A program made the position numbers and the translations under genes. A DNA stretch of 64,000 nt from assembly GCA_051294375.1 (NCBI GenBank), contig CM119267.1:177409-241408 (forward strand), in the 5' to 3' direction. Position 1 is the stretch's first letter. Each line of letters starts with the position of its first letter. Positions 1,199 through 38,240 of this stretch are shown here, piece after piece. The notes beneath the pieces are model-generated. The model had not been told where the DNA came from. It was given only the letters and a program-made list of their open reading frames with translations, and did not search any database. This DNA comes from Paraspadella gotoi. Lineage: Eukaryota > Animalia > Chaetognatha.

Positions 1199-2074
1199 CT
1201 AAACAGAAAAACGGAAAGTCAGGGTGACTCGGAAAATTTTGGAAATATATAAAAGGAGGAAGTTCAATACTGGAATGGATTTGTCCATTTTATTAATTGT
1301 CACGAATCACGAATGTCTTTTACGCTAAAAAAATCATTTTTAAATAAAAAGCATCAAAAAATAAGGTAAGAAAATAATATTTTACAATTTAAAAAGACTG
1401 TAACTCTGTATGTGACAGTTTTTTGTGACACGATGCAAGTTAACGTTGCGAAGCTTACCCATGCAAATTTTTATCATATTTTTTAATATGCGAGCCAAAC
1501 TTGAACCTTTAAATTAATAATACTGCATGCGCTTGGTTCTACCAGACTACCTTTACTTTTACCATAACCCTCACTTATCTACAAAAAAGGAAAATTAGTA
1601 AAAAGGCAGTAAGAAGCAGACTCGTGGTGGCAAAAATCTATGACAAAATTTGGTACTTCTTGATTTGTCAGTGAAACTATATAGCCAAAAAATATTAAAA
1701 ATGATTATAATTATACACTAAAAAAAAAGATCTTACTCTCTGATCCTTTATTTCATAATTTTGAATTTAGAAAATAAGTTTTAAATCAATCAATTTGAAA
1801 ACTAAAATGACAAATTTTTTTCCCACTTTTTCAAGATTTGACTTTCTTTTTTTACTGTATTCCTCCGGTGTTGAGGCAAAGAATAAGGAAGACATTTTGA
1901 GTTAAGTCATGTTATTGCAATCATATATGTATATTTTGAAACATACATAAGCATACACTATGTCACTCTCTCTCTCTCACATTTCTGATTTTATAAAAAA
2001 AATGTCACTCACGATGACTAATAGCAGTAAAAACTTTTTTCATTTAAAAAAAAATTGTCAACTTTTTTTCAGTG

Positions 2075-3692
2075 ATGATGGCTGATTCGTCATCGGCCTC
2101 ATTACGATGTGACGTGTCCAACGTCACGGACGGCGCAACGAACGCGGCACCGGCGTCAAAAACTTCGCGTTCGACTTCGAGGACGTCAAGAACAGCGTCC
2201 CACGTTGCTCCTGACGACGCGTTTCGCGGACCGTCACCCTCGGACAGCGATTGTGATTTTGAGCGAATTCCGTCGCCTAGCGACGAAAGCGCCTATGGCG
2301 GCGGCGCTGTCGGCGTCGTCGGCGTTCATCCCGTAATCTCCAGCCTCATTCCCAGCGCTTTTTCTGCCATCACTACTTCTTCCATCCCTTCTAGCATCGA
2401 TGGACTTTCCACTGCATCAACACAGTCTACTTCAGCATCACTGTCTACTCCATCACAACAGTCTACTCCAGCATCTCAGTGTACTCCATCACCACAGTTT
2501 ACTACAGCACCACAGTCTACTCTAGCAGCTCAGACTACTCCAGCATCACAAGGCCTTTTTCAACTTCCCTTAATCACTTCGTCAATGATTTCCTCTCCGG
2601 ATTTAGATGGCGCCTTTCCCCCGCCCAATCATATGACTCCGCAATCTTTCAGTCCCGTTCGTCCATCTGTCATGACCACTCAGGTTCAGTGCACCTCGGG
2701 ACCACATAATCTTGGCGCCATCAGCCCATCAGTCTTGGCACCGCAGCACTTCAACCCCACTGTCCGCCCTAAAAAGACTCCTCAGCCTCCCGGCGTAGAC
2801 GGCACTTCAAACCTGGCGCCGCAAAATTTCGTAAATGCAAGTCATTTCTCGATGTCAGAAGCTTCTGTCATTGTTGGCCCTTTGATTCCATCCCCGCAAC
2901 CTCTCTTCCAACAGCCAAACCTCCCTCCCACCGCTCAGTATCAAATGGCAGCGCCTCCGCCTTATTCTCCGGGCCCGCATATTTTTGATGGGAGGATAAC
3001 CCCTGCCTCCATTTCTCCCAGCGCTGCAATTCCTGCCACGACATTGATAAGTTCAGGTGGCCATATATATCCACCAAACTTGGCGCCGCAAAACTTTCAT
3101 TCCAACAACCCCGGCGCCCTCCCACCCGTCTTCCAGGGCGCCTTTCCCGGTTTCCCTCCTACTTCAATTCCTGGCGCATTTCCTGGTCCTGCAATGACTC
3201 AGACTCCCGGCCAACCACCGATCCAATGGATTTATCATCCACAATATGGCGCCTATGTTCCATTCATTTTACCTGAGAAATCTCCAATCGCCGCGGCTAC
3301 CCACTCTCCCCTGTCGGCGGCGCTGTCTGCAGGGCTGCCAGACGCGTCCTTCAAGGGGCCGCCACCGAATTCCAGTGTCAGCGACGCCATCGTCATGGCA
3401 TCCAAGTTCAAGGATAGTCTTCCATGCGGCGGTGTGATAGAAAGAGTCGCTCCGGACGAGGAAGTGGAAGAGGAAGATGAGGAGGAAGAAGTGAGAGAAG
3501 GAGGCATAGATGGATGCAGGGAGGAAGGAAGGGAAGAAGATGGAGAAGGAAGAGGTGGAGGATCGGCTGGAGGAGCATCTCCTCTTCCGATTCCATATGC
3601 TGTCGAATACCAGGACAGCGACCATCAAGACGACAATTTTAAAAACCAGCAAAGAGTGGAGCAAGGAAGTAACAATGTCCATGATGCAGGAG
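2075..3692 (+). CDS. first coding exon, Pro/Ser/Thr-rich low-complexity region (probable N-terminus of the FN3-GTPase gene)
   Basis: 551-aa ORF; acceptor TTTTTTTCAG ending 2072 just before ATG at 2075; donor GAG|GTGAGC at 3693 (phase 1); possible UTR-exon donor AAG|GTAAG at 1366. Contains QSTPAS-like hexapeptide repeats, LAPQ[NH]F x3, PPPY and an acidic tract. Confidence 0.8.
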
Positions 3693-6905: not shown

Positions 6906-6995
6906 GTAAATAATTTTTTTTTCAGTCTTTATTCAGCATAAACTTGAAGTCATTTTATTATGGTGTTATGGTGGACTAAAATCCATCAACCGTTC

Positions 6996-7150
6996 ATCAG
7001 CGGCCAATGATGCCGGAGGCAAGTCATTCGCCTCCCAACCCAAAGGTCGGGGTTCTAGCCGGTGGTCGCCTAGCAGTTAAGAGGACGGGGCACTTAACCC
7101 GCCTGTAACATGGTGTTACAGCCTGATCCGAAGCTCAGGGACTGCTTATA
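6996..7150 (+). mobile_element. possible tRNA-derived SINE-like intronic insert (inverted copy ~9222-9380)
   Basis: GC-rich insert; ATTCGCCTCCCAACCCAAAGGTCGGGGTTCTAGCC resembles a tRNA anticodon arm plus B-box; downstream hairpins TGTAACA-tgg-TGTTACA and CCTGA...TCAGG. Confidence 0.3.
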
Positions 7151-7869: not shown

Positions 7870-8169
7870 TGAACTTGTCAGAGATAGACGTGGATTGGGC
7901 GACGGAAGCGATTGAAGCAGACGCCGATTCGGAAGCATTGATTCCCATGGTGAAAGCATCTTCAGCATCCCTTCAATCGGATCGCAGTCACTTAAGTCCA
8001 GATGTAACTCAGCTGAGTTCCGAGCCAAGTCAATCAGCGGCCATTTCTGAGCCCGCATCAGAGACTGAAGTTCTCAAAGTCCACGACAATTTTCCAACTG
8101 CTCAGGCGCACTTTCAACTTCCTGTCACCCATCTTCCGCAGAGTGACATTCAACAGCAATACAATCCCG
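7870..8169 (+). CDS. internal exon (VNLSEIDVDWATEAIE...QQQYNP), phase 1-1
   Basis: TGTTTTCAG acceptor, G|GTAAAT donor, 300 bp open; joins in frame to the exon ending 3692. Confidence 0.75.
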
Positions 8170-11411: not shown

Positions 11412-11479
11412 GCCAAGCGATTAATCCATGGGCTGATCATGGTGTCATTAGCTGCATGCCTCCAATCGGTCATTTAATG
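11412..11479 (+). CDS. internal exon (GQAINPWADHGVISCMPPIGHLM), phase 1-0; duplicate at 7224-7291
   Basis: TTCTATTACAG acceptor, ATG|GTAAGC donor; in frame with the preceding exon. Confidence 0.7.
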
Positions 11480-11645
11480 GTAAGCATTATTTTTCACCAG
11501 GAATTTCTGTTTTTATCAAATGTTTAAAAAAAAGGTTTTGAACAAGGGAATGAAGTGTAAAACCAATCTAAGTATGTCAACAATAGAATAAGCCTGAGCC
11601 AAAGAATGATTTCCATTAATTAACCATCCTTTTTTTTTACTTCAG

Positions 11646-11720
11646 TTGCCACATATGTCTGGAACTTCAATGATGCAAGGATTTCCCTCTCGAGAAATGT
11701 TACACATCTCAATGATTCCG
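11646..11720 (+). CDS. internal exon (LPHMSGTSMMQGFPSREMLHISMIP), phase 0-0
   Basis: TTTTTTACTTCAG acceptor, CCG|GTAATT donor, 75 bp open. Confidence 0.65.
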
Positions 11721-16215: not shown

Positions 16216-16610
16216 GTAAGAGAAGTAGAAAAGAAGTGAGACTAGCTCTCTCCTGATCCACTTTTATCATCGCCCGGACCAACTTGACCTTACGGTCGCC
16301 TCGGCCCTATTACTGTGTCCGGTCAATCTAAGGTCATTGCCAAAGCTAGGGCAAACTGACCGTGTGGAATAGACCGGCTCAAAGAAAGAGGAGAGAGGAA
16401 GGGTTTAGAGAGAGAGACCGGTGGTAAGTCGCCTCAAGGGCGTCCTTTTTTTGGAGCAAGCTTCTGGGTTGTTCTTCTTTTTTATGGTTGGGAAAAGTTA
16501 ATGATAATTAAATATCATACTTAATTTAAACCTAGGATATGCTTTAATGTACTTACAATATAATGTTGAATACTTTTATAACTTTATATCTTATTATTTA
16601 TTCACAACAG

Positions 16611-19600
16611 AAAAACCTGAATGGAGAAACGGCCCCCCCATTTAAAAGTAAGGAAAATGAAGAAATTACTAAGTTACGCTCAAAACTTGATGAGCTCCAG
16701 CTGCCAAAGGACTTGCAAAAAGTAATTATAGATGAGGAGGAGTTCAATACCTTGCATTTATTTGCTGAAATTACGCCAGATGACATTGAAGAAATGTTCA
16801 AAAAAATTGGCTTGTCACGGGGTAAAAAGAAAAGACTTGACAATGCCATAGCAGAAGTGAAAAAGTATTTGAACAAAAATGATGAGGTGACTAAAGCATC
16901 GTCTAAAATATTTCCCTCTGACAATCAAGATGATGAAGCTGATGAATATGTAGATGCAAGCAATGAAATTCCTAAAGTAGAAAAAGGCAAAAATACCGAA
17001 CCAATTGATGTGAGTTATCTTAAGTCAAGTTCAGTTGAAAAAGAGGTTCATCTTCAACCTGGAAAGTATTTGGTAAAGAACACCTCTAAAACAAGCATTC
17101 AGTTGAAGTGGAACACAGAAAATTCCAATCATGGTGCAGCGTACTCAGTGGCATGGCAAAAAGAAACATCAAATTTATTAGATTATCTACACCGAGAAAA
17201 AGAGAAAACTAGCATCAATGAATGTGAAACGACCATAGACAATCTAGATACTCTAAGGAAGTATACCTTCACAATCAAGGAAATATATCTAAAAGAAAAG
17301 TCAAACACTATTAAAACACAACCGATTTTAATTGGTACTAAACCTACCTCACTTGAATGGGTCAATGTGGATAATTCAAAGGGTATACGAAATGGCAATA
17401 AAATCAAATTTACATGTAGAGCACCAGTTGACTTTGGAGGATTTGATAGCTTAAAGTATAATGTTGAAATCTGGTATCCAGATAAAAAGGAGAGGGTTTA
17501 TCATGATTGCTATGATTCAAAGTCTCTTTACGGTGTAGAAAGTTTTGAAAACAATTTATCAGATAAGTTTGGAAGGTGTGTTTTGAGAGTAAAGGCAGGA
17601 AACAGTATAGGAGACACCAATTGGCTGTTAAGTGAGATTTTCCTTGCAGGAAGGATTCCAGAGCAGCCTCAGGAGCCATTGTGCGTGAGAGTTGGCCGAA
17701 ATATGTTGAGTGTATCATGGAAAGCACCTTTGGAAAATGGAGGTTACCCTGTTATGAATTATCATGTCTCTATTTTTGAGAATGATACAAAAAGGTTAGA
17801 GACTAAATTTTGTCCAACAACGGCAGTTGAGTTTTTTAATATATCTAGTGGAATTTGGAATGTAGAAATCAGTGCCAATACTGAATTTGGCATGGGTCTT
17901 CCTTTAAGGCTTAAAAAAATATATGTAGGCTCAATTCCTGATAAACCTCAAGATTGTAAGTTGAGCTACACAAGAAATAGTGTAACACTGACTTGGGATG
18001 AGCCGAAAGACAATGGTGGTTTACCATTGATACGCTATGATATTGCTTACAGTATTCTGGATAACAAAGACACAAAAACTTGGCTTTCTGCTGATTCTGT
18101 TGATGCACATTTAAAACGATTCACACTACCTAACATTCCAGAAAGGCAGGAGATTCAACTAAAAATACGAGCCACTAATCCCATTGGTACAAGTGATTGG
18201 TACGAAACCCCAAGCATATTTACATCAGATAAACCACAGGCACCACAGGGACCGCTAAACATATTTTGTGTATCTCCTTCTTTGTTAAGTCTTAGTTGGA
18301 AACCTCCAGTAGATGATGGTGCTGCAGATATTATGCATTACAATGTGAACCTTTTTCTACAAACTGATGAATGCAATTCCAACTGGAAAGAATTGGCAAA
18401 AGAACAAACAGAAAAAGAAGAATTAATGATTGAAGTTCCCCATATACCCAATACAGTCCAACTTCAGTGCACAGTTGCTGCCTGCAACCGAAATGGAGTC
18501 GGAGAAAGACTAAGATCTCATCCACTATACATGGTCTGTCCTCCTTCAGCTCCTCTTGGACCAATACAATTCAGTGACTTAACTAGGAATTCCGTTCTGC
18601 TGCATTGGACCAAGCCCGAGCAAGATGGAGGAGATGATTGTTTAAAATATGAAATACAACATAAAATAGCAGGTGATAAAAAGTGGATTATGTCTGAATT
18701 TAAATTGAATAACTCTGCAGCATTGGTAGAAAATTTGCCAAATGGCAAAGAAATGACATTTGCTGTGACTGCAATAAATCGAAATCTTGGCAAAAGTGAA
18801 AAATTATTGTCAGAGCCTATTATCATTGCTGGTCTACCTGACCCTCCCAGTAAACTAACAGTACAGAAGATGAAAAGTGACATATTCAACTTGTCCTGGA
18901 CCCAAGTAAAAAACGATGGTGGCCTACCAATTATAAAGTATGAAGTTTGGTACAAAGGTGCAAAAACAAATTGGAATTTATTGAGCACTACAAAAGATTT
19001 TAATTTGGATAATATTAAAATGAATCGAGGAGAGACCTGCACCTTTGGAATTAAATCTTGTAATGAGAGAGGGAAAAGCGAATTGGCAACAACGGATCCA
19101 TCTCCAGTTGGAAGTTCCCCTTCTGCAATCAGTCAAGACTCAATCGTAATTAAACCCTCAAGAGACTCATGTGAGATCACTTGGAATTATCCTGCAGATG
19201 ATGGTGGTTTTCCAGTGCAGCTTTACACAGTACAAAGTTTAGTAGAGGATGAAAAAAACTGGCAGTCAATACCAGCATCATTCTCTAATGAAAAAGCTGT
19301 CATAGAAAACCTTATTCCAGGAAAACAATACTTCTTCCGCATTTCAGCTAAAAACATTATTGGTTGTGGTGAATCAACCATTACAAAAGATCCTGTTGCA
19401 ATTGGAGGTCCACCCTCTGAGCCTCTAGGGCCAGTAAAAATCCGTGAGGTTACTCCAGAAAATTTGATTAAACTAGAATGGCAACCACCAAAATACTCTG
19501 GTGGCTTCCAACCAATTTACAAGTTAGCTTTGCTCACAAAAGAAAATATTCAACCAGTGAAAGAGATTGTTGATACAAATTCTTTTGAACTTATGCTGAA

Positions 19601-21545
19601 AAAATATGGTTTGGAGTTTGGAGAAAGATTGCATCTAGAAATTATCGCGATCAATTCATGTGGTGCAAGTGACAAGTTTACTTCCCATGAAATCTTACTT
19701 TCAGGACCACCTGATTCGCCAACTTTCTTCGAGATTCCTGATGATGATTTGACCGATAATTCAGCTACTTTAACCTGGAAATGCCCAGACTTTGACGGGG
19801 GAGCTTCTATTGTAAACTATGTTCTTGAGTCCAGAAAGCGGGGAGAAATTGATTGGAAACTAGTTAAAGATAACATTGATTCGGCAGAAACTTCGACAAC
19901 CGTTCACGGTTTGGAGCTTCGAAGTACTTACGAATTTCGTTTGTGTGCTGAAAACTCGGTGGGGAAGAGCAAATTTGTAAATCACCCAGCGGTGGTGCTG
20001 CCTCACCCTGCACAGAGATTGATGAAAAAATGTGAAAAGATAAACGAAATTCCAGGCCATCCATCTGTTTACTTGTTACCAGTGGATGAAGTTGCTGCTA
20101 AGGGTGAAATGCAGAAATTTCAGATAAATGTTTCTTCAGATGGATCAGGTTCTTCATCCATTTTAAATCCCAAAGAAAAAGTTCTTCTAGTAGTTGGGGA
20201 AACTGGGGGTGGGAAAAGTACTTTTATAAATGGATTAATAAACCATGCTTATGGTGTTCAATTTGACGATTCCTTTAGGTTTAAACTGATAAGAGATTCA
20301 ACAAATCAAACAGTGAGCCAAACAAAAAACATTTCCGCCTACGTTATTCCAAAAGAAAAAGGCAGCATTTTAGATTTTACACTTACAGTGATAGACACTC
20401 CCGGTTTTGGTGATACAAATGGAATTGAAAGAGATAGGGAAATTGAAAATCAATTAAGAGATTTTTTTAAAAACCAAGAAGGGTGTGGCGTTGATCAAGT
20501 CCATGCTATTTGTTTCATTGTACAGGCCTCTCACGCAAGACTTACACCTGCCCAGACTTACATCTTTTCATCCATTCTTGCAATGTTTGGAAAAGATACT
20601 GCAAAAAACTTTTTGATTCTTTTCACGTTTGCTGATGCTATTGAACCACCAGCTTTAGGAGCTGTAAAGGAAGCGAAAATTCCATTCAAAACCACATTTA
20701 AACTTAACAACAGTGCTCTATACTGCAACAATACAAGTAAAGATCATTCTACAAAGTTCAATGAAATGTTCTGGACAATGGGAATGGAAAGTTATAATGA
20801 ACTGTTTAAACAAATGGAAACTATGGAACCAGTTAGTTTATCATTAACACAAGAGGTTATGGAAACTCGTGAATCTTTAGAAAAATTGCTTGAGGAGCTG
20901 ATCAAAAGACAAAAAACTGGATTGGATATTTTAAATGAATGCAAACAAGAGTATGATGTCATTATGAAACATCAGAGGGATATAAATGACAATAAAAGTT
21001 TTGAATACGAAGTTGACAAAACAGAATTTGAAAAAATTAAAACAGACCCCGGAACTTATGATACAAACTGTTTAATTTGTCAAACCACCTGTCATTACCC
21101 ATGTCTCATTCCTAATGATGACCAAAAATTTAATTGTGCTTCAATGGATAGAAAAAGTAATCCAACCAATCCCAGCTGTGTTGTCTGTCCAGGAAAGTGC
21201 AACTGGCAAGAACACAACAATGTGGGTTACAAGATTGTTTCCAAAGTTGTGAAAAAGAAACAAACATATGCTGAAATGCAGCAAAAATACAAATGTGCTT
21301 TGGATGGGAAAGTTACAGCAGAAAAGCTGTTGGAAAAAGTTAAAACTCGTTTTATCGATGCCGAAAAAGAAGTACTGCGTGTGATTAATGATACTAACAA
21401 AACGCTTAAGCATTTGGCAGATATCGCTTTAAGGAAACACGAGCTCACCACCGTGAAACACATTGAGCTTTTGATTTGCTTAAATGTAGATCATGACACC
21501 AATTATCCTGCTCTTTTAACACTTATAATTCAATGTATTAATTAG
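16611..21545 (+). CDS. SAM-like domain + 10 fibronectin type III domains + AIG1/septin-like (TRAFAC) P-loop GTPase + Cys-rich/coiled-coil C-terminus, single large exon; sequence after ~21475 probably artefactual
   Basis: 1660-aa ORF entered at acceptor TTCACAACAG|16611. SAM-like EEEFNTLHLFAEITPDDIEEMFKKIGLSRGKKKRLDNAI (~16670-16870). Ten FN3 repeats with P..P.GP, W..P..DGG..I..Y and A.N..G motifs (~17045-20000). G1 GETGGGKST (20196), G2 SQT, G3 DTPG (20394), G4-like FTFAD. CLICQTTCHYPC...CVVCPGKCNWQEH (~21066-21219). Confidence 0.92.
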   Translation, partial: KNLNGETAPPFKSKENEEITKLRSKLDELQLPKDLQKVIIDEEEFNTLHLFAEITPDDIEEMFKKIGLSRGKKKRLDNAIAEVKKYLNKNDEVTKASSKIFPSDNQDDEADEYVDASNEIPKVEKGKNTEPIDVSYLKSSSVEKEVHLQPGKYLVKNTSKTSIQLKWNTENSNHGAAYSVAWQKETSNLLDYLHREKEKTSINECETTIDNLDTLRKYTFTIKEIYLKEKSNTIKTQPILIGTKPTSLEWVNVDNSKGIRNGNKIKFTCRAPVDFGGFDSLKYNVEIWYPDKKERVYHDCYDSKSLYGVESFENNLSDKFGRCVLRVKAGNSIGDTNWLLSEIFLAGRIPEQPQEPLCVRVGRNMLSVSWKAPLENGGYPVMNYHVSIFENDTKRLETKFCPTTAVEFFNISSGIWNVEISANTEFGMGLPLRLKKIYVGSIPDKPQDCKLSYTRNSVTLTWDEPKDNGGLPLIRYDIAYSILDNKDTKTWLSADSVDAHLKRFTLPNIPERQEIQLKIRATNPIGTSDWYETPSIFTSDKPQAPQGPLNIFCVSPSLLSLSWKPPVDDGAADIMHYNVNLFLQTDECNSNWKELAKEQTEKEELMIEVPHIPNTVQLQCTVAACNRNGVGERLRSHPLYMVCPPSAPLGPIQFSDLTRNSVLLHWTKPEQDGGDDCLKYEIQHKIAGDKKWIMSEFKLNNSAALVENLPNGKEMTFAVTAINRNLGKSEKLLSEPIIIAGLPDPPSKLTVQKMKSDIFNLSWTQVKNDGGLPIIKYEVWYKGAKTNWNLLSTTKDFNLDNIKMNRGETCTFGIKSCNERGKSELATTDPSPVGSSPSAISQDSIVIKPSRDSCEITWNYPADDGGFPVQLYTVQSLVEDEKNWQSIPASFSNEKAVIENLIPGKQYFFRISAKNIIGCGESTITKDPVAIGGPPSEPLGPVKIREVTPENLIKLEWQPPKYSGGFQPIYKLALLTKENIQPVKEIVDTNSFELMLKKYGLEFGERLHLEIIAINSCGASDKFTSHEILLSGPPDSPTFFEIPDDDLTDNSATLTWKCPDFDGGASIVNYVLESRKRGEIDWKLVKDNIDSAETSTTVHGLELRSTYEFRLCAENSVGKSKFVNHPAVVLPHPAQRLMKKCEKINEIPGHPSVYLLPVDEVAAKGEMQKFQINVSSDGSGSSSILNPKEKVLLVVGETGGGKSTFINGLINHAYGVQFDDSFRFKLIRDSTNQTVSQTKNISAYVIPKEKGSILDFTLTVIDTPGFGDTNGIERDREIENQLRDFFKNQEGCGVDQVHAICFIVQASHARLTPAQTYIFSSILAMFGKDTAKNFLILFTFADAIEPPALGAVKEAKIPFKTTFKLNNSALYCNNTSKDHSTKFNEMFWTMGMESYNELFKQMETMEPVSLSLTQEVMETRESLEKLLEELIKRQKTGLDILNECKQEYDVIMKHQRDINDNKSFEYEVDKTEFEKIKTDPGTYDTNCLICQTTCHYPCLIPNDDQKFNCASMDRKSNPTNPSCVVCPGKCNWQEHNNVGYKIVSKVVKKKQTYAEMQQKYKCALDGKVTAEKLLEKVKTRFIDAEKEVLRVINDTNKTLKHLADIALRKHELTTVKHIELLICLNVDHDTNYPALLTLIIQCIN

Positions 21546-24500
21546 TTCATAATTTATAAATAGTTCATTTGGTTGATAAGAAGACTCGAGATCCTTGGAT
21601 CTCAATACAGCCAATTTCCTCTTCGAGGTCATTCACATGCTACGTTATAGTAGAATTGGGAGACCTACATATTATTTTTTATTACAGCTTAAAGCATAAA
21701 GAACCATGGTCCAAATTCAGTTATTGGCAAAACATATAAAACCTTGAGCTTAATTATACTACATATTTCCTAAAATTCTCACTTAGGAAGATATCATTAA
21801 TTATGTGTATAAATAATTCTTGCAATAGGCCTAGTTGTTGTTTGTTGAGTTTACACAATATAAATTATATTAGAAATCTTCTAACATTCTTTAATTTGTT
21901 TTTAAATATCATCCCTCCAAAAAATTAGAGAACATGCTAATGGGTCATAGCAAGGCGTAAATGGACACTTATCACCCGCATCATGTGTGTTTTCCGCACA
22001 AAATGAGGTGTGCCGCAATTTCCAATGGAAATTCACCAAGTCTCAACATATTTCGGACCAACTCTCACATCGCACAATGTGCTCCTGAGGGCTTACTCAT
22101 ATGGAATCACTTTCCTTTTAGCAATTGCCGAGAAATCCGTCACTTAACATTGCCAATTGGTTGTCCGTCCTATAAAGGCAATATAAATTGGACGTAAACT
22201 GGGTGTCTAATTCGTGCCTGGATAGTTGAACTGCCAAACAGCCCTTTTACTGCCCCTTCAAGAACACAAAAATGTAGGGACTCAAACCGTTTAATTCCGC
22301 CTTTCAGATAATATAACGTGCACCTATTGTTTCTGAGTGCTTAAATGCATTGTTAGATTAGCAATCTGATAGTGGGTTATTGTGCATCCAAAGTTTAAGT
22401 AAAGTATACTGAGATGCATCAAGTGTCATAATGAGAGCTTCTTATAGTAGGTAAATCCAATAATTTGTAGCCATAAAATTTTTACACATTAGTTTCTTCC
22501 ATTTGATCATGCCACCATTCTCATGAGATTGTTATAATTCATTCTGTATAATATCGATATATAGTAACTTTCAAACAAAAAACTATTCTAGAGCAAACTT
22601 AAGAAAAATAATTTATTTCAAATACCACAAAGCAGATAACTGTAGCGATACACATGAGGAATTTTTTTAGAGTGATATTAAAAAAAATTTTTTGCATACA
22701 TGTTCTGACAGCTAGTTATATCGTTTCCACTCTAAGGCATGCTCAGGTTTATTAAATTGCAAGGAGACTTTGTGTGAAATTGGACAAATTAAAAGACATA
22801 ACATTCTATTTCATATAAGAGGAGTAGGTAGCTATACTCGCGAAAGTGAAAAGAGACTATGTGTGAAAAAAATCTAGCTATGGCCTAGTCCCACAAACTT
22901 ATGCCAAAGTAACAACGGCAAAATTTTGTTGTAAATGCGTTCTAATCTTTGGAAGAAAAATAGAATAGTTGACTAATGTGATTGTTCGTAAAAGCCACAT
23001 GTTACAACATGTTAGAATCCCGCTTATAATAAATACACGGAAGACGTCCAGGACGCTCTCCTTTTTTATGACACTTCCGATACACACGTTCCAAACAGGG
23101 GCAGAAACTGAACGTCTCGCTATCTAAAAGAGCATGTAAGTGCCGGCATGAGCTTCGAGTGTCGTAATGCAGTGTTATATTAGCAACGGATAGGGTGACC
23201 CATGTCCGCTTTCAAGGTTAGGTAATACGTGTATCAGTGGCAGAAAGAGTAACGTCTCACTGCATTGCGGCGAAATTCTCATATCCTCCATTGAGTGTGC
23301 ATGTACTTCTGGCTGAAGGAATCCGATTTAGCCATATCTCGAAGGTGATAGAAGGAATTGTTATATGGGTATTACTAATCCTTGAACTGCGGTTTAGAGA
23401 AGTTTAGGGAAGACCGTGGGGCTTAGAACGCGACAGAAATATTTATTAGATCAATAACTTAAAAATGAAGCGGGAGATACGGGGACCAGGTGAGCAGAAG
23501 AAGTGGGGTGAAAACTAGTAATTGACCGGAGACGGGGGGGAACGGGGACCGTAGGGCAGTGAAAGGTAGCGACGAAACGCAGAATCGAGCGCAGAAAATC
23601 GTTCTGGGATATTATTCACTAGAGACAAGGCTGAAAGATTGATACATAGAGGTGCAGAAATATGGTTCCGACGTCTGACGGAATCTTGTGGAAGGCAAAT
23701 GCGGTCCCTCGCCGATGCGCAACCCTTTAACTTGGCAGGTTGATGTGGTCTTCACGACTGTTAAAATATATACAATCATTGATAACATCTTACTCTATAT
23801 CGCGAACGTTTTTATGTTAAGGCTCATTTTAGAAATACCTACCCGGCGGATTTTTAATTTTCTCTTATCGGGTGATGTTAGGTTGTCAATATTGCAAAGC
23901 GAGATAGACGGTGCACATGGATTCAATAAGGTGCATAAATACATGCACGGACGCGCAACAAGGGATGAGCCATTGATCTCGTGGAGATTCTGTCACGTGG
24001 CGCCAATACCGAACCCCGTGTCGCCATTCTCAACGTTGTTCTCTAGCCCTCAGTGATTCGCCCTCCCCCTACCCCTGTCGAGAGAACGAAGGACAGAGTC
24101 AGAAGAAGTCCGAGGGGGGCTCTGTGTAAGAGAGCAGACCACATGCACCCCTCATTCACAAGCCAGACTCTGTGGTGCAAAACCTTGTACTCACGCCCAC
24201 ATCGCTTCACTTCAGTCGCCTCTGCTTCATAAGGTGGCGCTCGGAAAGGAGTTCCGATGTTTTTTTCTTTTCATAACGTTGCAAAATTTGCCCTTTAACA
24301 TTCGACCCGCTTCTTATTCCTTTTTGGTTAAACGTTTAGCATGATTTATATAAATCCTGCTTCTGTGTTGCTTTCCTGTCTTTTTTATTAAATACCTGCT
24401 ATCAATTTTTCCAGTTCCTCTATAAGTTCATCTAATAACAACCTTTTATCTCACACCGTCACTTATTATCCATTAATGCGTAAAGTGTTTTTATTGGCGC

Positions 24501-25300
24501 CATTGATGCCACAAATCTACCATAACTTTGAACAACAGATTATTTTGATTATTATTCCCCACTTCATTAAATTTTATCTAACAGATCCTTTCACGTTTCC
24601 CATTAAACCTACTGGATGTAACTCGGCCTTTCCAAATATTATGATATGTACTTATTATACAACACTACCAGAGTAGTTGAAATACTTTTTCATCATCAGA
24701 TCTCGTTCATACCTCTAGCTGTCTGGTCTGGATATTCCGCATATTTAATAGTTTTATCACCACTCACCCTTCAGTAAAACCACAAAAATGACTCTGATGA
24801 ACTCCGCGTATGAAACCGAATGAACACTTTCCCATTCTGCTCTTTCGATCACAAAGGCTACCTCCTTTAACATTTGATCTGGACGTTTGAAAAAAGGGCG
24901 AAATGTAATTTATAATTGGCTTCCTCAACACTTCCTCTGTCGCAGTCTTCTTGCAACCACCCTTCTTATTTTTTGATTCTCCTGTGAGACTTCTTTGCAG
25001 CTTCCTCTCTTAAGGATGGCTGTGTCTTAGCTACAATGACTGAGGTTGTTGTGAAAGTGAATTCTAATGGCTGTGTTGCCCTCATACCAATTTTGGCCCA
25101 TCGTTTTTTACATTTCCAGAAAAGAGGCACATATGGCGTAAAAACCCAGAAGACATGTCGTTTCGCTGTTTTTAATTGTTTTAGATTGTGTGCGCACGTT
25201 AAGATAATTCGTAACTCTCCTCGAAGCATTTTGGTGGTTTTACTGTTTCCTTGATCTCTATTACATTGTTCTCTGCAATTTTATAAATTATACTAAATTT
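21476..25300 (-). other. insertion-riddled reverse-complement copy of ~16650-18050 (probable low-quality long read)
   Basis: 22040-22175 TCTCAACATATTTCGGACCAACTCTCAC...GCTCCTGAGG...CACTTAACA...CCAATTGG matches the reverse complement of ~17605-17712; 21600-21730 matches the reverse complement of ~17870-17970. The 22.6-24.9 kb part is too noisy to align by eye. Confidence 0.75.
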
Positions 25301-25349
25301 CCTGGCTCGGCGTCGCGTCCTTGGTGTATTACGTTACTTGCTTTCGAGG

Positions 25350-28300
25350 ATGGTGTGCGTAAAGATGAAGACATAAGTAGTTCAATGTAAAAGAAGTAAG
25401 TGAGATAGTTAACAATTTTAGGGTGTATACGATATTGCTTGTTCGTAGTTACGCGTGCGTCTCAGATAATAACTAGGCACTCATTGTACTTTGCGCGTTC
25501 AGAAAAATTTTTTATCCTGGCACACTCCAATCTATTCACAGCCTTGCCAAAGGATTGCAAAAGAGCTTAATATATAGATGAGGGGGGAGGAGTTTTTCAA
25601 CCGTTACCTATGTAATTGTGGTGAGCACAAAAAAACATGTTTTCAATTTTTGAGAGGACATACTCGGATATGATTTGTGGTACTTTGTTATGACTAATGG
25701 AGATGTACTCTCTTTACGAAATCGATTACAGCTTATTTACTTGCACCTGTCCATAGGTCGTTGAGCCCGAGACTACCAGATATTTTGGTGGTTTTTGTGA
25801 TTATGATCCACGTCAGATGGAGGACATTTATGTTTGTTGAGTGTATTGGATACATGTGAATCATAAAACTGAAATAATTATGGATACCTGTGGTCACGGC
25901 TTGTATGAGCGGCATTTAGTTCTTAAATTGAATATTTACAACTATTTTGTGATAAAAATTTATTGTAGTGGAGAGGAAGTTAACAATAGACAAAAGAGAA
26001 CTCGGGCTGTGGTAGCACGCAACTGCCATAGATATGACGCCTAGGGTGTAGAGTGAAAACGGTCCAGTGTTAAGCAGCAAAAAATGATGAGAAGATGATG
26101 ACTAATAGTCAATACTCGTGTTGTAACAAATTTATTTTTTCATCTCCCCTTCGTGATTATAGTCTTTACTATTTTCTATATGAGAGAATATGATTGTGAA
26201 ATAGACTGATGAATATGTTAGAGTATTTTGATAATAGCGTCATGAAATGATCCTAAACGTAGTAAATAGGCGCAAAAAATCACGAAACACCAATTGTATA
26301 GGTGTAAGATTTGCAAGGAGATACGTGGTGTCAAAGTCTCAATGTTTTGAAAAAGAGGTTCATTTTGCCTTTCAATGGTTTTTTCTTTGTGTGAATAAGT
26401 AAGAGATATTGTGGGTATAATATATGTTATACGGAGCGGTGAATATCAAAGACATAGAGCGGAGGTATAGGGATCGAGTGTTTTGTAATGTGGTGTGTAG
26501 GAACTACAAGAAATTCAAAGTCTTATATGGTGGCTAATATGCGTCACTCAGCCAATTAAGGCTCATGGCAATATAAGAAACATCATAATAAATATAAATC
26601 CAATCCATTGAAGCAATTATCCTACTACCCGAGAAAAAGAGAAAACTAGCATCAATGAATGTGAAACGACCATAGACAATACTAGTACTCTCTAAGGAAG
26701 TATACCTTCACAATCAAAAGGAATATCTCAAAAAGAAAGTCAAACACTATTAAAACACATATCGATTTAATTGGACTAAACCTACCTCACTTGATAGGGT
26801 CAATGTGGGATAATTCAAGGGTATACGAAATGGCAATAAAATCAAATTTACATGGAGAGCACCAGTTGACTTTGGAGGAATTTGATAGCTTAAAGTAAAT
26901 GTTGAAATCTGGTATCCAGATAAAAAAGAGAGGTTTTATCATGATTGCTATGATTCAAAGTCTCTTTACGGTGTAGAAAGTTTTGAAAACATACATATTA
27001 TAAATTCTAGTTTTATATATAATGGTTATAGGTACATGTTGATGTTATTGGAAGAAGCTAAAAAGACAAGAGATATTGGGAGATATTAGGAGCACACCAG
27101 AGTTTGGTCTGTTTAGACGTAAGAGATGTATATCGGTCTGTGTAGACACAGGAAGGACTGTACCAGTCAGCATCAGGAAGTCCATTGTGTGCGAGGGGGA
27201 GCATATTGGAGTTAAGAGCCGAGGCAATTAGATGTATAAAGATAAGTGCATCATGCATAGTGACAGGCACAGCCTTTTGTGATGTGAAACTCTGGAGGTT
27301 TGATGACATGGGGGCAGTAAACGTGAATTTAACTTAGAAAAATTTATTCATACATAGTCTATTTAAACGATTAGGTTTTCTGAAGAAATGTAAGATCCAC
27401 AAATAGGTAGAGATCTAAATCCTATTGTGGTCCAACAACGGGCAGCTATTTGGAGTTATCTCTTAGAGTAATAAATACTATGTGTGTGTTATTTTTTGAG
27501 ATATATATGTGAAATCAGTAGGCGAGATTACTGATAAGAATATTTAGTGCAAATATATTCCGTGTTGTTCTAAGTTATAATGGCTTAAAAAAATATATTG
27601 GTGTAGCTCAATTACAATAAGATATTCACCTCCATAGTATGTTTAGAATACTGAGCTATACACCCACAAAAATTAGGTGTAAAACACTCTGCGATATTTT
27701 GGGAGTGAGGCCCCTGATTAGTCAAAATATGTGAGTGTGGTTTATAACCCACTTGATACGCTATGGATTATAAGTCGGTATTACAGAATATTAACTGGAA
27801 ATTATATTTTAATACACCATAACCTCTTAAATAAATGAACTATTGGACCAGTTCCTGCTGTTGTCCAGTCTGTTTTTTGTTTGGCAAGCATTTATAAAAG
27901 ACGATTCGCAGCACACTAACCATTATAAGGCAATTACTGCAGTAAGTGTGGAGATTCAATTTGACAGAGGTAAGAATGTCCGCATGAAAAAACATTACGG
28001 AGGCTCCTATACTATATCTCATTGCAGGTACCATATGTGAAATTAGGTACATGTTTTTGTTTTATCTTTTTTTTAAACTAACCAAGGCATAATTTACTAA
28101 TTAGAGATATACTCACAGGCACAAGGTGTAAACCGCCTAAACATAATGTCTTATGTGTTTTATCTCCTTACTTTCGCTTAAATGTCTTAGTTGGAAAACC
28201 ATTACATCAGTTTTATATGTATTGATCTTGTTGGTGTGTCTCTTGATCTTACGCAGCCAGATAAATCTATGTCAGTTACAATAGATGAACTTTAAATATT

Positions 28301-31300
28301 CACTACAATATCTTTGAAATTGGGAAATTACAATATTACAACTGGATAATTGATAATTGGGCAACAAAAGAAAATTCTAAAGTAGATAGACTCAGATAAG
28401 AAGAATTAATGATTGATAGTTTCGTGTTTCTATCCATTGACCCATTGACTAAATATAAAATCAGTTCACTAACTTACTAGTTCGCATTCCCAGTATAGAT
28501 GTGTGCTCTAATAGCGCAAAAAAACTGTGTATAAATATGCCGATGTCTTGAGAGTAACCTGAGAATATTATGACAATGATCATCCCCACAGCTTAGAGTA
28601 TGCTAAAGAGTTCTGGTTTCTGATGGGTCACTCTTAATTTACTTCAGCTCCTTTCATAGGACATATCATATTCTAGTGTAGACGCAGGTGTCCCATGACT
28701 GGAATTTAACTTAGGAATTGGTCTCGTATCTGCTTTTGCAGTGTAAGGAACCAAGCCCGAGCAACGATGGAAAGGGAAGTATTTGATTGCTTAAATAAAA
28801 TACAATTATGAAATCACACATTGTAACCATAATACAGACGCTGATTCTATATATAAGATGTTGCTTATCGTCATGAATTAGTTATATATTTGAAAATATA
28901 CATGCTCAGCAGCTCTGTGTTATTGATAAATTATGACTTCAAAAGCTGGTACAGCAAGATATATCTGATACTTGTTCAATATGCTAGTTTTGATACGGTC
29001 AAAGGCGGGCAATTACACATTTATTCGATAAGTTTGCGTTTAATCGGCAAAAGTGATAACTATAAAATTTTATTTTGATCAAGAGTTCGGGTAATATAGA
29101 TCTTGCTCTCTGGTTTTTGGATCAGAACTGATCTCCAGCGTCCGCAGTGAAGACATAAAACTAACGAGTACAGGAAGTTATGGAATAAGAGTTTTGCCGA
29201 CAGAATAAGTATTAGCTTGTCCTGGACTCAAGTAAACGAAACGATGGTTGGCCTAGCCAACTATACCAAGGTTATAAGTAAGTTTGGTACAAAAGTGCAA
29301 AAACAAACATTGATAATTAATTCTGAGCACTAACCAAAAGCATTTTTTATTTTGTTGATAATAAATTTTTATTAAAATGAACTTCGTATGTGCACGAGCA
29401 CCCTGACCTTTGGAATTTAAATCTTGTAACTTGAGAGAGGGGAGAAAAGCGAATTGGCACACACCAAGGAGTCTACATACTTCCAGTTATGGGAAGATTC
29501 CCTTGCTCTTGTCGATACAACTGTTCTAATAGATATACACATATTCGGTCTCGAGAAGTCGTAATTAAAGCCTCAAGGAAACTCCATAAGTGAAAGAAAT
29601 ATATTACTAGATACTTAGTGGCGCTGTACAGTGATTGCTCATCCTGGGTGAGGTTATATGTGTCGCTCTCAGTGGAATCGCTTAACGATAAGTTTATACT
29701 CAAATATATAAGTAACATAAGAATAAAAATAGGCATCTAAGAGGTCAGTGAAAAGTAGAAGGCTGATTTTTTTTAGAAATTGCATTCTTTTCTTGTCATA
29801 ATTGGCGTTTTATTGTTTGTAAGCCTGTACAGAAGGTATTTCGAAACTGGCAGTCAAATCCAAGTTCTATTCGATTCCTTATGAAAATAAAGCTGTCAAG
29901 GAAATACCTTATTCGCAGGGAAACAATCACTTCTTTTCCGCATTAATTCAAGCTAAAAACATTATTGGTTTGCTGGTGAATCATAACCATATTACAAAAG
30001 ATTCTGTTCTGCAATGTTGGAGGTCCACTACCTCTGGCCTCGTAGGGCCATGTAAAGAAATCCGTGAGGTTACTCCAGAAAATTTAGTATTAAACTTAGA
30101 ATGTGCAACTCACCAAAAATGACTCTGGTATGGCTTCATCCAACCAATTTACGAGAGTGTGATAACTCTTCTGCTCACATAGAAAGAAAAATATTCAAAC
30201 AAGTGAAAGATGATTGTTGAATTTTTAGATATAAATTTCTTAGAAGACTTTATTAGACATAGTTTAGAGAAAACACATTGTAGGGGCGTGGTGAGTGTGA
30301 GAGTGTGTTGCGCCAGTGAAGAGTTGCAGGGAACTTCATTCTCATGAAAAAGATATTGGAATTTATCTTTGTCCATTTTGAGGGCGTAGATCTTGAAATA
30401 TGGCCTAATTAAAAACAAATGCATTTATCACTATAAAATTGAGGTATGATGGTGGGGTATATTGGCTAGTAGCTTGAGGATCTCCGGTTATATTGGTTTC
30501 GTTAAAATTTTGTTTTAAATAAATATTAAATATTTTTTGGCATTTATAAAAGCAATGGTCGATAAATTTGTAAGCGTTTCAGGCTTAATATTGTTATCCT
30601 TTATTTACCCTATTTTTGAATTAGTTAGTTTTTGTTGAGGGTCATGGGTTATGGTCGATACAGACATTGGTGCCGTAGCTGGGTATACTCGCGGACAGTA
30701 TTACCTACAAGTGTAGGTTTACTTTCCCGATGGTGAAATCCTTACTTGTCAGGACCCTAACTCTGATTCGCCAACTTTCTTCGAGATTCCTGTATGATGA
30801 TTTGACCGATAATTCAGTCTATAATCTTTAACTTGGAAATGTCCTGGGGCTGAAGTTGTGGTAATGTACTTGTAGGGGGAGGGGGTAGGCATTCGTAGAT
30901 AGTAGTAATTCTATGTCCTCAAGTTGAGTCTGTTCACGCTTGAAAGGCGGGTTGTGAGAAATTGATTTTGTGCAATTGGTGTCCTATTTGTGGTATATAT
31001 TAGTATATTACTATTACGATTTTGCGGATCAGAAAACTGTATCGTAATCATATCGGTGTGGCACGGATGGATGATGGTTTGGTTGTATTTTTCGTGTCGT
31101 TTTGATGGTTTTTTTCGAGGATTAGATCATTTTTCTTGATAGTTATCTATAGTTTCATGTCTCGGGATAATTAATCGTTATAGATATTGTGTCCTGCATG
31201 GGATCATATATATATGTTTTATTTTTTATTCATGTACAATCATAACGGAAATGGTAGTGAGAAGACTGGGTATATATAAGGTGGTCTGTAAATCACTCAT

Positions 31301-34300
31301 CTTCTCAGAAGCAGGTTCTTAAAATAAAGAGTAATTAATTCAGTAATACCTTCAATTAGGAAATGTCATGGGCTCTAAATGTGTTTGCTTTTATTTTCAA
31401 TTTTAGTTTAGAAATTATCTTTGTAAAAAAGTAGAATAAGGCCTTCACATCTTTGATGATCATGATGCCGAATTAATAATTTTCTCTCGCGCGCAATTTG
31501 AAGACAAACAAGGAGAAAGTCTGGAGTCCAATCCGGGAGTGCTCACAACATAACTGTTTGGACCCCGTTAAGTGATATTAAAAAAACCATAGAGGAGAAT
31601 AAAGGATTAACTAGTCAAACAGAGATTTTGTTATATTTAAATTTAGAATATATACATAATATTTACTGTGTGTAAAAAAGAATTAAGATTTCATAAGACA
31701 GGGGGTCATGGCCGGCCAGGTCATACTTTAATTGTATTGTTAACTGTATTACTTGTTAACTAAGTGGATGAGTTTGGCTGTCTATAAAGGTTTAGAGTCG
31801 AAATGCAGAAATCTTGAGATGTACACGTTTGTGGTTCTGTTACTCTAGGATGTGATCCTGGTCGAGCGCTTTCTTTTCATTCATGTTGTAATATTTATTT
31901 CATAGTGTTTTAGTAAATTCTCGCTCTCCTATATATTTGAATAAGTTAATTCCTCATAGTATATAGTTTTTGGTTTCGAAAGCATGTGGGGCTTTGGGCG
32001 GGAAATCAGTATTATCTGATTATCATATTATTAATGGGTAATTTAGGGTAGTTAACTCCTTATTTTCCTAGAATCCGGTGCTAAGATATGGGTTCGTAAT
32101 TCATAAAATGTGTTGAAAACGAATATGCCTTTAATGGTTTAGCATAGACTTTATTCAAGGGAAAAGTACGTCAAATCAACAGTCATACTCAAGATTGAGT
32201 TATAGCACCATATCCATGGCTATAGAAGACTTGAGAGACTCAAAACGCCTATTTTTTCTCTTCGTCTTGACGTCGATAAGCAAAAGGCGTCGCGTTCCAG
32301 AACCGGATCGGCTGTGTTACCTTTCGCTATATGGAGACAGAAAAGACGCCGCTAAGCATTTCTGAATCGACGATACTGTACTTGAATTCGCCTCTTATTT
32401 ACGCTCGGACGGTTAGCTAACACTCTCTCGGATTTTTCATTTGTGTTTCATAACCAATATAATTGGACATTGTTCGATAATTTCAGAGGAGTGGAGTTGC
32501 GCGATATATAATATGATAAAATGTAACTTCAATTTAAAGTAGGATTATTTTGTTGGTCTAAACTTATAAACATATCTACTGCACAGAGAGAAGGAGTCGA
32601 TGGCGTGTATTTGGATTCATATGTGTTCCATTCGTAGCTCCACTTGTGGGTGTTTAATACACTTTAGGTACAATGGCCTTTGTTTGTTTCTAATCACTTT
32701 GTTCCTAAACCTTAGACTAATTAAATGCCCACCTCTTGACCTCTTGAACCACAATGATATATGTGATCTATTACATCATCTTTTTTCATATTTATGTACT
32801 AACTGCGCATAGTCCGTATTAGAGTTCTTGATTTTGTTCCAAATATTAAGGACTTATTTTTTGGAAACTGTTAGAAAGAGTATGTCCCGGCTGAGGAGAG
32901 AACTGGGTGCAGATGTCGCTCATCTAGTGAAGTAGTGAATGTGATGACTCTCATTGGTTCTGTAGTTCGGTGGTTTTTCTCTTTCTGACTGCATGTGTCG
33001 CCCAATTGTGGTATTTCTGTACTTCGTGACTATCCCGGCGGTTGGCTTGGCTACCATGTGGTGCTATTCAACCGCAGGGTTCCCATACTCTATATGTGTC
33101 AAAGAAAGGAACGTGTTATGGACACTGCTAAAAGGAGGGTTTGGAAACCCCGAATAAGATACCATAGTCGAGTTTTCGGACGAATAAGACAGTAACATAT
33201 TGGAGAGGAGCTGAAAGAGCTTAGTGTGTATCTCATACAAAGGAGTAGTATAATAATTTATAATACTTAATTACACTGCATTACAACCCTAGTGATGGTA
33301 ACATATTATTGTTTAGAGACTGGAGTCATTCTCGCATAATGTAGAAGTGTCTCGGTAACTAAAATCTATAAGTTCACTATTTATTTGTAAGCCTTTCTAA
33401 GCTGTTTCAATTAGTGTTTCGATTGGGTATAGAGATAATTATTGTATTTACTTTATATTGGTAGGACTCAATCATTGGTAAATTTCGATAGAGCTGGATC
33501 AGATCGAGTTGTAATTTAATAATAGTGGACAAATGTTTAAACAAATGAACGACTAAATTGGTAGGGACAGTTAGTTTTATCATTGCAAAAGCTGAATCGA
33601 AGAGCGCAGCAGCTAGTGGGGTGACCAAGGTTAAATTGATGGACACAGTCCGTAGTGTAAGGTAAATAACTTCGTAGATAGTTTTTAGGATAATAAATGT
33701 CTTATAGTCTTTTGATAGTGAGTCTTTCAGATATTCTTTTATATAATTAATCTCTTTTATGAGCTTTCTCGCTGACTAATAAAAACTACCTTTCAATTTT
33801 CCGGTGCGTTTGTGGTGATTTATATATTTTTTTTATACAATAGTAAGTTGAATGGTGCGGCATTTTTCTACCCTTTAAAAAAATCATGTAGAGTGTTGTT
33901 GATAGTAATTTATTTGGAAAAGGAATCCCAGTGTCAGTATTAATGGACAAAATACTATTTGTTTAATCTTAGAGGGATTAATGTTAAATATAATGTTACA
34001 GAATAAATAGTTGTTTGATAAATATGTCGAAATTCTCGGAAGATATAGATTAACAGACCATATACGCGTGAACTTATGATAAACTGTTTCTTTGTCACCC
34101 CTGTCGATTCAAGAGTGATTACTTGGGTCGCAGCTAGGCTCGCATTCCTATGATTAATGAACATCTATATCTTTTATATTGTGTCGCTGTCAAGATTTGG
34201 TAGTTCACGAAAAGAGTAACTACCACCGTAAAAACGTCCAGGCTATAGGATGTATACTGTATCTGTTCCAGGAATATGTTTTGCTTACTGGTTGTATGAT

Positions 34301-34589
34301 ACACATATCAATGTGGGTTTTTTTATCTAATAGATTGTTTTTTCCAAAGTTGTGTAAATAAGAAACAAACATATGCTGAAATGCAGCATAAATATACAAA
34401 TGTGGCTTTGGATGGGAAAGTTACAGCAGAAAAGCTGTTTGGAAAAAGTTAAAAACATCTGTTTATCGATGCCGGAAAAAGAAGTACTGCGTGTGATTAA
34501 TTGATACTAACAAACGCTTAAGCATTTGGCAGAGTATCGGCTTTAAGGAAACACGAGCTCACCACCGTGAAACACATTGAGCTTTTGAT
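25350..34589 (+). other. insertion-riddled forward copy of ~16650-21475 (probable low-quality long read, or degenerate pseudogene)
   Basis: Colinear anchors: 25545~16703, 26630~17192, 29215~18890, 30060~19440, 30765~19713, 34340-34589~21238-21475; roughly twice the original length because of random insertions. Confidence 0.85.
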
Positions 34590-34802
34590 CGAGGGAGGAG
34601 AGACAAAAAGCAGAATATGGATGGGAAAAACGAGTTCAATAGGTCATTGANNNNNNNNNNNNNNNNNNNNNNNNNGAACATCAAGAAAAAAGCCATTTTG
34701 ATTGAGAAGACCAACAGAGCTGGCTTTGATCCATGGGAACATTGGAGGCAAGGTAAAGACATGGAGGAATTTTGGAAAAGTGTCTTTGCCAGTAGGAAAT
34801 AA
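34590..34802 (+). CDS. probable true C-terminus of the FN3-GTPase (..LLIE-x-EE...W-EKRVQ-[gap]-NIKKKAILIEKTNRAGFDPWEHWRQGKDMEEFWKSVFASRK*)
   Basis: Continues from CACATTGAGCTTTTGAT, the exact point where the 16611 ORF diverges; clean ORF after the 25-N gap ends TAA at 34802, followed by AT-rich UTR-like sequence. Confidence 0.75.
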   Translation, partial: RGRRDKKQNMDGKNEFNRSLXXXXXXXXXNIKKKAILIEKTNRAGFDPWEHWRQGKDMEEFWKSVFASRK

Positions 34803-36922: not shown

Positions 36923-37112
36923 ATTTTACTCAGCTCACTCTTTTAGTAACTACCTAAAGTACTTGGTAAAAATTCTCTTTATCAATTTTTATAGAAAATG
37001 TTTAAATCGTTTTCGTATTATTAATAAAATATTTTTTATTACAAGAGACAGACGGAAAAAACGAGAAATATACAGACAGATTGACAAACAGACAAACTCC
37101 CACATCATTTAC

Positions 37113-38188: not shown

Positions 38189-38240
<52 letters not shown>

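Follow-up and report, generated by a model that had tools for sequence, protein, structure and literature searches.

The window analysed here is a stretch of 64,000 nucleotides from the chaetognath Paraspadella gotoi (contig CM119267.1, positions 177,409 to 241,408), and it contains a gene with one very large coding exon. This exon encodes a probable SAM domain, ten tandem FN3 domains, a GTPase domain of the paraseptin class (AIG1/GIMAP-Toc34-septin) and a predicted helical stalk with a Cys/His-rich tip. The GTPase and stalk belong to a family whose other listed members mostly carry different N-terminal domains. The main features, in window coordinates, are the following.

16611..21475, + strand: large coding exon, to the limit of correct assembly (open reading frame, motifs, contig agreement)
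16656..16880, + strand: probable SAM domain, residues 16-90 of P0001, the encoded protein (BLAST, Atlas, structure match)
17055..20003, + strand: ten tandem FN3 domains, unit 1 family-type, units 2-10 titin/twitchin-type, no Ig domain between them (Pfam, profiles)
20034..20822, + strand: pre-G beta strands and paraseptin-class GTPase domain (Pfam, alignment, model, fold searches)
20196, 20316, 20394, 20622 and 20697, + strand: starts of the GTPase motifs G1, G2, G3, G4-like and NNS
20538-20540, + strand: candidate arginine finger R1310
20841..21425, + strand: predicted helical hairpin stalk (model; invariant Cys and His)
20841-20987, 21057-21215 and 21267-21425, + strand: stalk helix out, Cys8/His2 module flanked on each side by a beta strand, and helix back
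21476..34650, no strand: assembly artefact, a second copy of about 15.8-21.5 kb, ending with a copy, out of frame by a frameshift, of the coding bases that come next (34591-34650)
34677..34802, + strand: true last 41 codons and stop, ending in a possibly amphipathic helix (BLAST)

The large exon and the 3' end of the gene

The open frame runs from stop to stop over 16548-21545 of the + strand (1,665 codons), and the large exon is entered behind an AG acceptor whose last base is 16610. The stretch is present in nine of the 11 sequencing runs listed, from three studies, and the contigs of four runs were compared with the window; the P2 and P3 contigs seem to belong to a single data set, and the X5/X6 contigs are identical and were counted once. 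Positions 16610-21475 are reproduced by the contigs of the four public runs with 0-6 differing letters per contig. A single DNA contig covers 16411-21475, from a run that is possibly the source of the window itself. At positions 20885 and 20909 all four runs have another base, altering a stalk residue in both cases, and the window bases are probably sequence errors.

Past 21475, the contigs of the four runs continue for 93, 469, 278 and 278 letters that are unlike the window, and between about 21634 and 24000 their depth is zero or close to it. The region from about 22.5 to 34.65 kb is a noisy colinear copy of 15.8-21.5 kb, stretched about 1.9-fold, with 452 forward 12-mer matches between the two copies compared with 14.6 in shuffles; a 25-N gap (34651-34675) ends it. 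It looks as if an error-rich long read had been used to fill a gap. The stop codon that the window shows after 21475 is false, and the true C-terminus of the protein lies at about 34591-34802. The codons of 34677-34802 are clean and match the C-terminus of the closest relative, P0017 (BLAST E 5e-8); on the basis of these 41 codons and stop behind the gap, the gene is therefore intact. The uninterrupted frame originally read at 16611-21475 is indeed open, but the sequence behind it does not belong to the gene, and the exon continues. Its coding capacity, estimated from the spacing in P0017, is about 1,680 residues; 1,621 codons are open in the window's frame, with every catalytic motif intact. 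As predicted, no transmembrane (TM) segment or signal peptide is evident: the Kyte-Doolittle maximum over 19-residue windows is 1.52 in the large exon and 1.61 in candidate exon 1, no dedicated signal-peptide predictor having been run.

Domain architecture of the protein

The GTPase motifs (G1 GETGGGKST, G2 SQT, G3 DTPG, G4-like FTFAD and FKLNNSALY) and the two Cys/His motifs (C-x2-C-x3-C-H-x2-C...C-x2-C-x3-C-x4-H) are present exactly as quoted in the original prediction. The TxxD-type G4 together with G1-G3 gives the motif pattern of the paraseptin class. Pfam matches AIG1 with 38.8 bits (cut-off 27) over positions 3-135 of the 212 in the profile, and Septin with 37 bits (cut-off 26.2) over positions 7-125 of 280. 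A model of the GTPase and stalk, built from an 80-sequence alignment, has a predicted local distance difference test (pLDDT) score of 89.6 and a predicted template modelling score of 0.84. In this model, the pre-G strands and G domain are followed by a 43-residue helix running out, a strand, the Cys/His module, a second strand and helices running back. Foldseek places GIMAP7 first (E 4.5e-10), then Toc33/34 and GIMAP2. A wide structure search places Toc33 first (Z 14.6, root-mean-square deviation (rmsd) 3.7, 198 aligned), with EngB and GIMAP7 (12.9) and a Chlamydomonas septin (Z 12.7, rmsd 3.8, 210 aligned) below it. By sequence, the nearest solved proteins are septins (PDB, E 2.6e-5), over G1-G3 only. 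As modelled, the G-domain fold is nearest to GIMAP/Toc/septin, in agreement with the class first proposed, the structure searches topping out at GIMAP7 and Toc34/33.

The protein is nevertheless unlike each of these groups in some respects. With GIMAP/AIG1 (GIMAP7 3zjc, GIMAP2), the best Foldseek match and above the AIG1 cut-off, it shares the TxxD-type G4, an Arg after the fourth strand and a helical C-terminal extension; but its stalk is far longer and has a beta-hairpin and a Cys/His tip, and it has an invariant NNS motif, extra pre-G strands and an FN3 and SAM head, no TM tail and only a partial AIG1 match. Toc34/Toc33 and the single algal septin (2j3e, 5irr) give the high Z scores above, whereas the protein lacks a TM anchor and carries other cargo, and its model lacks the septin-unique beta-meander after the G domain. 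It resembles septins in the G1-G3 matches and the coiled-coil tail, but these matches end at profile position 101-125 of 280. A septin proper has an AKAD G4 and the septin-unique element; this assignment was rejected, the G4 being TFAD and the model having no beta-meander.

The eight Cys and two His of the stalk tip are invariant in all 80 aligned sequences, which implies metal binding. In Atlas the module resembles unnamed eukaryotic clusters from Chordata, Foraminifera and Basidiomycota (0.92-0.94), with DUF8206/PF26633 as a lead at 13% of one cluster. By analogy, the PH domain of dynamin and loop L4 of Mx occupy a position equivalent to that of the putative metal-binding tip. The dynamin-like immune GTPases (Mx, GBP, IRG) have in common with this protein a G domain, a helical stalk and tip module (predicted here) and a membrane coat (proposed here), a likeness drawn in part from PMC4774019; however, the G domain here is closer to GIMAP/Toc.

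In 78 of the 80 aligned proteins an Arg follows the fourth strand of the G domain (R1310 here; strand 166-172 in the model), and by motif it is conserved in 260 of 274. In Toc34/159, GIMAP and the single Chlamydomonas septin, dimerisation through the G interface is driven by arginine fingers (PMC10996617), and parallel G-G dimers are common to dynamin- and septin-class GTPases (PMC4774019). The tails of the family are often amphipathic and basic: the best hydrophobic moment exceeds that of each protein's own shuffles in 224 of 273 proteins, and the net charge is positive in 211.

Residues 16-90 probably form a SAM domain. BLAST aligns the region without gaps to the Pfam-confirmed SAM of a family member, P0249 (E 4e-5; 10 identities and 24 positives in 41 positions), and three SAM families are in the top five Atlas rows (0.85-0.87; leads only). 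A single-sequence model of the region (pLDDT 65) matches SAM chains nearly end to end (Z 4.4-5.0), including the BICC1 SAM (Z 5.0, rmsd 2.9, 62 of 63 aligned, rank 21). A PDB sequence search with the region returned no SAM, and the SAM-like head of P0017 was missed by a profile built from two SAM sequences. The SAM-like helical domain of the original reading thus finds weak agreement from BLAST, Atlas and fold matching, but lies below the Pfam cut-off.

The FN3 array consists of ten mutually diverged units, as first counted. Pfam fn3 matches nine stretches, and a profile of the protein's own units places ten at residues 149-1131 with a mean pairwise identity of 22%, a count that is partly circular because the unit boundaries were drawn by eye. 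The titin/twitchin type assigned to them is borne out by a test with five profiles, in which the titin/twitchin profile is best for nine of the ten units and the family's own FN3 profile for unit 1; 45 of 48 held-out family FN3 domains were assigned to the family profile. An earlier and smaller version gave 7 of 12 twitchin-like (control 30/30). The best solved matches to the array are titin chains from the thick-filament region (E 5e-80 and 5e-75). Ig/FN3 proteins of titin/twitchin type lead the database matches, with 23-27% identity, and some Ig-free FN3 arrays follow closely. A DGG loop motif is found in this protein and its sister clade; elsewhere among the 274, a single unit of a single protein has it. 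The array shares this FN3 class and motif with titin, twitchin and projectin, but has no Ig domains, Ig-FN3 super-repeats or kinase; Pfam finds no Ig, kinase or MACPF family in the large exon. In unit 1 (window 17174-17178), the X5/X6 contig has nine extra bases relative to the window and the DNA runs, a frame-preserving allelic length variant.

The GTPase-stalk family and its possible function

A search with the GTPase-stalk among 1.84 billion sequences gives 4,351 representatives at E<=0.001 and, at the stricter threshold of E<=1e-30, 1,211. The relatives have 38-48% identity over the entire GTPase-stalk, and the protein shows the G motifs, NNS, RLT, the stalk tip with eight Cys and two His and the full-length similarity that define the family. 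The named relatives belong to corals, flatworms, molluscs, crustaceans, echinoderms, sharks, bony fish, amphibians, turtles, lizards, crocodilians and ostrich, in line with the uncharacterised GTPases of fishes and aquatic invertebrates mentioned in the original reading; the named rows of the 120 matches listed (904-2,877 residues) include no mammal, insect or nematode. Database names are uncharacterized, FN3 domain-containing, AIG1-type G domain-containing, neoverrucotoxin-like and STXA. The GTPase class is known, and the family is present in databases under empty or misleading names. No paper describing it was found by domain combination or identifier, in a search that took in few subscription papers and no supplements.

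Most listed members have stonustoxin-type MACPF, helical and thioredoxin heads with one or two family-type FN3 domains; stonustoxin-type domains are present on 83 of the 120 listed matches (a hand count in which four incomplete Pfam lists were scored negative). Other heads include Death (P0025) and B-box (P0004, P0060, P0121) and, among 39 hand-chosen proteins with the best five families each, B-box on P0276, kinase on P0285 and SAM_1 on P0249. Fusion partners of the immune type are seen in the family. P0315 and P0320 have a further type of head, an N-terminal domain of about 450 residues, with no Pfam match outside the GTPase. Six proteins (P0002, P0003, P0004, P0005, P0007 and P0229) carry at least two tandem GTPase modules within a single chain, an arrangement that would be consistent with G-G pairing. 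The nSTAND3 and AAA labels given by Pfam to some relatives were rejected as P-loop cross-matches (P0083: E 2e-4, below the cut-off, over G1). Four sntx-like genes that lie next to one another in the stonefish have an extended, long second exon (PMC10566576); they may be members of this family, and the text of that paper mentions neither GTPase nor FN3. None of 601 pattern matches in viral contigs is related, and a scan of 1/64 parts of the prokaryote genomes gave one weak match among 652 stretches, which is uninformative on transfer.

The present protein shares all the motifs of the family but differs in its probable SAM domain and nine titin-type FN3 domains. It is not a stonustoxin-like MACPF protein, as neither the large exon nor the two largest candidate upstream exons have MACPF, helical or thioredoxin-like domains. 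Among 274 GTPase carriers, 113 have no FN3 match and ten, this protein included, have 10-26 units. The architecture had been flagged as unfamiliar; long arrays occur in nine other proteins, but the combination of a SAM-like head with a long titin-type array was not matched by any second protein in the family and database searches.

Phylogenetic trees were made of 68 rows by a quick method and of 30 rows by a careful one (LG+G4), the latter for the clade test, with the group chosen after inspection of the quick tree. The ten long-array proteins are rejected as one clade (approximately unbiased test, p 6e-5, 30-row tree), and long FN3 arrays consequently arose at least twice. The closest relatives, P0017-P0023 (JGI, Logan and merc records), are 48% identical to this protein and group with it with Shimodaira-Hasegawa-like approximate likelihood ratio support of 99 (68 rows) and at 100/99 support (30 rows). 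They have a SAM-like head by eye, two or three FN3 matches, the same domain order, titin-type FN3 adjoining the GTPase and the same C-terminal motif, but their small Cys/His N-terminal domain contrasts with the putative low-complexity region here. Both sister-clade FN3 units tested also score best on the titin/twitchin profile, and on profile scores this FN3 class appears on the GTPase otherwise nearly only in this one clade, with one such FN3. In the simplest history, an ancestor of the clade would have captured titin-class FN3, which then expanded in tandem and diverged here.

From the models and conserved residues we consider the following biochemical scheme fairly likely. GTP would pair two G domains, with the conserved Arg acting across the interface, and a tail of the basic, amphipathic kind that the family usually has would anchor the dimer to an intracellular membrane. 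The stalk would present its predicted metal-binding tip, SAM contacts would cross-link dimers into a lattice or coat, and the titin-type FN3 rod would extend to partners or targets. In most listed relatives the GTPase would concentrate perforin-like N-terminal cargo on the membrane, whereas here the cargo would be a scaffold and not a pore. Such a membrane-anchored intracellular scaffold might serve in cell-autonomous defence, a role to which we give about an even chance because of the fusion partners, the patchy distribution and the known roles of the class: the AIG/GIMAP clade has been tied to immunity (PMC3417536, PMC7159879).

Several observations weigh against this proposal. Pfam lists no SAM family for the protein (SAM_1 and SAM_2 fall below the cut-off), and unrelated helical proteins outscore the SAM chains on the SAM-region model (Z up to 6.3). 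R1310 may be a trans arginine finger, its equivalence to the GIMAP/Toc finger being positional, without residue-level superposition, and the tail of this protein is not significantly amphipathic (p 0.073). No effector domain (MACPF, Death or other) is found in this gene by Pfam. Allelic changes, counted for the listed variants and not for 13 further rows of the variant table, are 10 non-synonymous to 1 synonymous in the FN3 units and 0 to 2 in the GTPase (Fisher p 0.038). Nine of the 11 listed FN3 changes are in units 7-9, but the FN3 non-synonymous excess is no different from neutral (p 0.28) and the pattern is suggestive only. In each DNA run the ORF has one contig depth, so that the gene appears single-copy at >=90% identity, and a rapidly expanding sensor family in this genome is therefore a poor fit. 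The sister clade is highly uniform across samples (GTPase branches 0.004-0.07). Together, the single-copy appearance and this uniformity suit a conserved orthologue better than a sensor that evolves fast.

The same biochemistry would also suit a housekeeping GTP-dimerising membrane scaffold with no special immune link, acting in trafficking, in the shaping of organelles, at cell junctions or on lipid droplets. The class has housekeeping members in Toc34 and the septins, and the single-copy appearance, a uniform sister clade and a PPPY motif in the candidate N-terminus, which could recruit WW-domain ubiquitin ligases, are in keeping with such a role. We nevertheless find it rather unlikely, as the swapping of perforin-like, Death, B-box and kinase heads and the lack of mammals, insects and nematodes in the named rows of the 120 matches listed suit a conflict system better. 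Less probable still is a muscle or cytoskeletal linker, in which titin-type FN3 would bind myosin filaments and the GTPase-stalk would tether them to membranes: nine of the ten units are of titin/twitchin class and the best solved matches are titin thick-filament chains, but identity to titin-like proteins is 23-27%, the units are mutually 22% alike, there are no Ig domains or super-repeat, and the sister clade has two or three FN3 matches. An assembly chimera or dead gene is highly improbable and largely refuted already, for although the flanks are badly misassembled and the window's own stop is false, the ORF is reproduced by contigs from three studies, 1,621 codons are open with catalytic motifs intact, and the sister clade has the same domain order.

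The defence scaffold can be extended to a broader and more tentative proposal, against which we think the balance tips somewhat. It describes an overlooked class of animal immune GTPases, from corals to birds, with a GIMAP/Toc-type G domain and a zinc-tipped dynamin-like stalk, which would coat target membranes and deliver interchangeable heads (perforin-like pore, Death, B-box or kinase); in this lineage, a SAM polymer and an FN3 rod captured from a titin/twitchin-type muscle gene would have replaced the pore-former, and the FN3 domains would have diversified as a variable binding surface. The larger point is the family itself, with over a thousand sequence clusters, a near-invariant GTPase-stalk and swapped heads. 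If it is a membrane-coating defence GTPase with perforin-like cargo, many genes that are now labelled 'uncharacterized' or 'verrucotoxin-like' in fish, reptiles and invertebrates would gain a function, and the non-venom relatives of stonefish toxin would be linked to a targeting mechanism. With its muscle-type FN3 class grafted onto that GTPase, this member is a clear example of such a fusion, and it gives biochemistry a toxin-free representative of the family.

Candidate upstream exons, probable transcription and other sequences in the window

Contigs of the DNA runs X1 and X2 extend into the intron, to 16411, whereas a 4,805-nt contig of X5/X6 starts matching at 16610 and is preceded by 2,127 other letters. 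X5/X6 has about 0.45 million records compared with 4.4-7.0 million in the other runs, and a repeat-to-gene depth ratio (first bin) of about 130 compared with about 8,000. On account of these two values, X5/X6 is likely RNA and the joint at 16610 likely a splice junction, although no run is recorded as RNA. The gene is thus likely transcribed. A second RNA-like contig, 19281-21475, joins FN3 units 9-10 to the GTPase, which would provide the expected transcript link between array and GTPase; the whole exon is not covered by any single RNA-like contig, the two meeting at a variant near 19279. The candidate upstream exons are as follows.

2073..3692, + strand: candidate first coding exon, Ser/Pro/Ala-rich and of low complexity (AG/GT sites, in-frame stop-free chain)
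7001..7045, + strand: optional candidate exon, 45 nt, phase-neutral, behind the copy of exon 2 at 6608, with weaker splice sites
7870..8169, + strand: candidate exon 2, 300 nt (stop-free chain)
11412..11479, + strand: candidate exon, 68 nt, with a second copy at 7224-7291 (splice sites, chain)
11646..11720, + strand: candidate exon, 75 nt, ending in phase 0 before the large exon (splice sites, chain)

The four non-optional exons have canonical sites and no stop through the junction with the large exon. The chain is 2,063 nt long (2,108 nt with the optional exon), and the last base of its final exon, G, agrees with the contig match starting at 16610. The chance of phase agreement at four junctions is about 0.012, less telling because the exons were picked among copies. 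All seven GC-rich open candidates found by script between 3.7 and 16.6 kb are chain exons, their copies or longer forms. Exon 2 has a 298-nt copy at 6608-6905 and an inverted copy, both from assembly duplication; chains with the 298-nt copy or with a 109-nt version of exon 3 contain stops and were rejected. The chain would add an N-terminus of 687-702 residues, Ser/Pro/Ala-rich and presumably disordered, in which Pfam matched no family; candidate exon 1 has one PPPY and three LAPQ[HN]F motifs. To judge from these sites, the gene likely has at least four upstream introns. The intronless core and retroposition originally suggested are contradicted by the contig joint at the acceptor and by the stop-free exon chain. 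Long uninterrupted frames may be a trait of the family, many long relatives having been called on assembly contigs.

The small upstream exons lie in a block of about 2-3 kb that is present at 4046-11645 in three to four copies, direct and inverted, with 97-99% identity and around N gaps, likely an assembly duplication. A 71-bp tandem array (1-949; 11.5 copies, 98% alike) is directly followed by what may be a promoter and an untranslated first exon, whose donor lies near 1365. Further downstream, the region 37042-47159 has a direct and an inverted duplicated block, 1.6-2.1 kb in length, with low-complexity frames only, and a satellite of about 253 bp at 54685-56936 has 7.6 copies, 80% alike. 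At 60000-63000 there are 62 TTAGGG hexamers embedded in 46-208-bp repeats; by its motif this sequence is telomere-type or subtelomeric, and the TTAGGG motif differs from those of nematodes and most arthropods.

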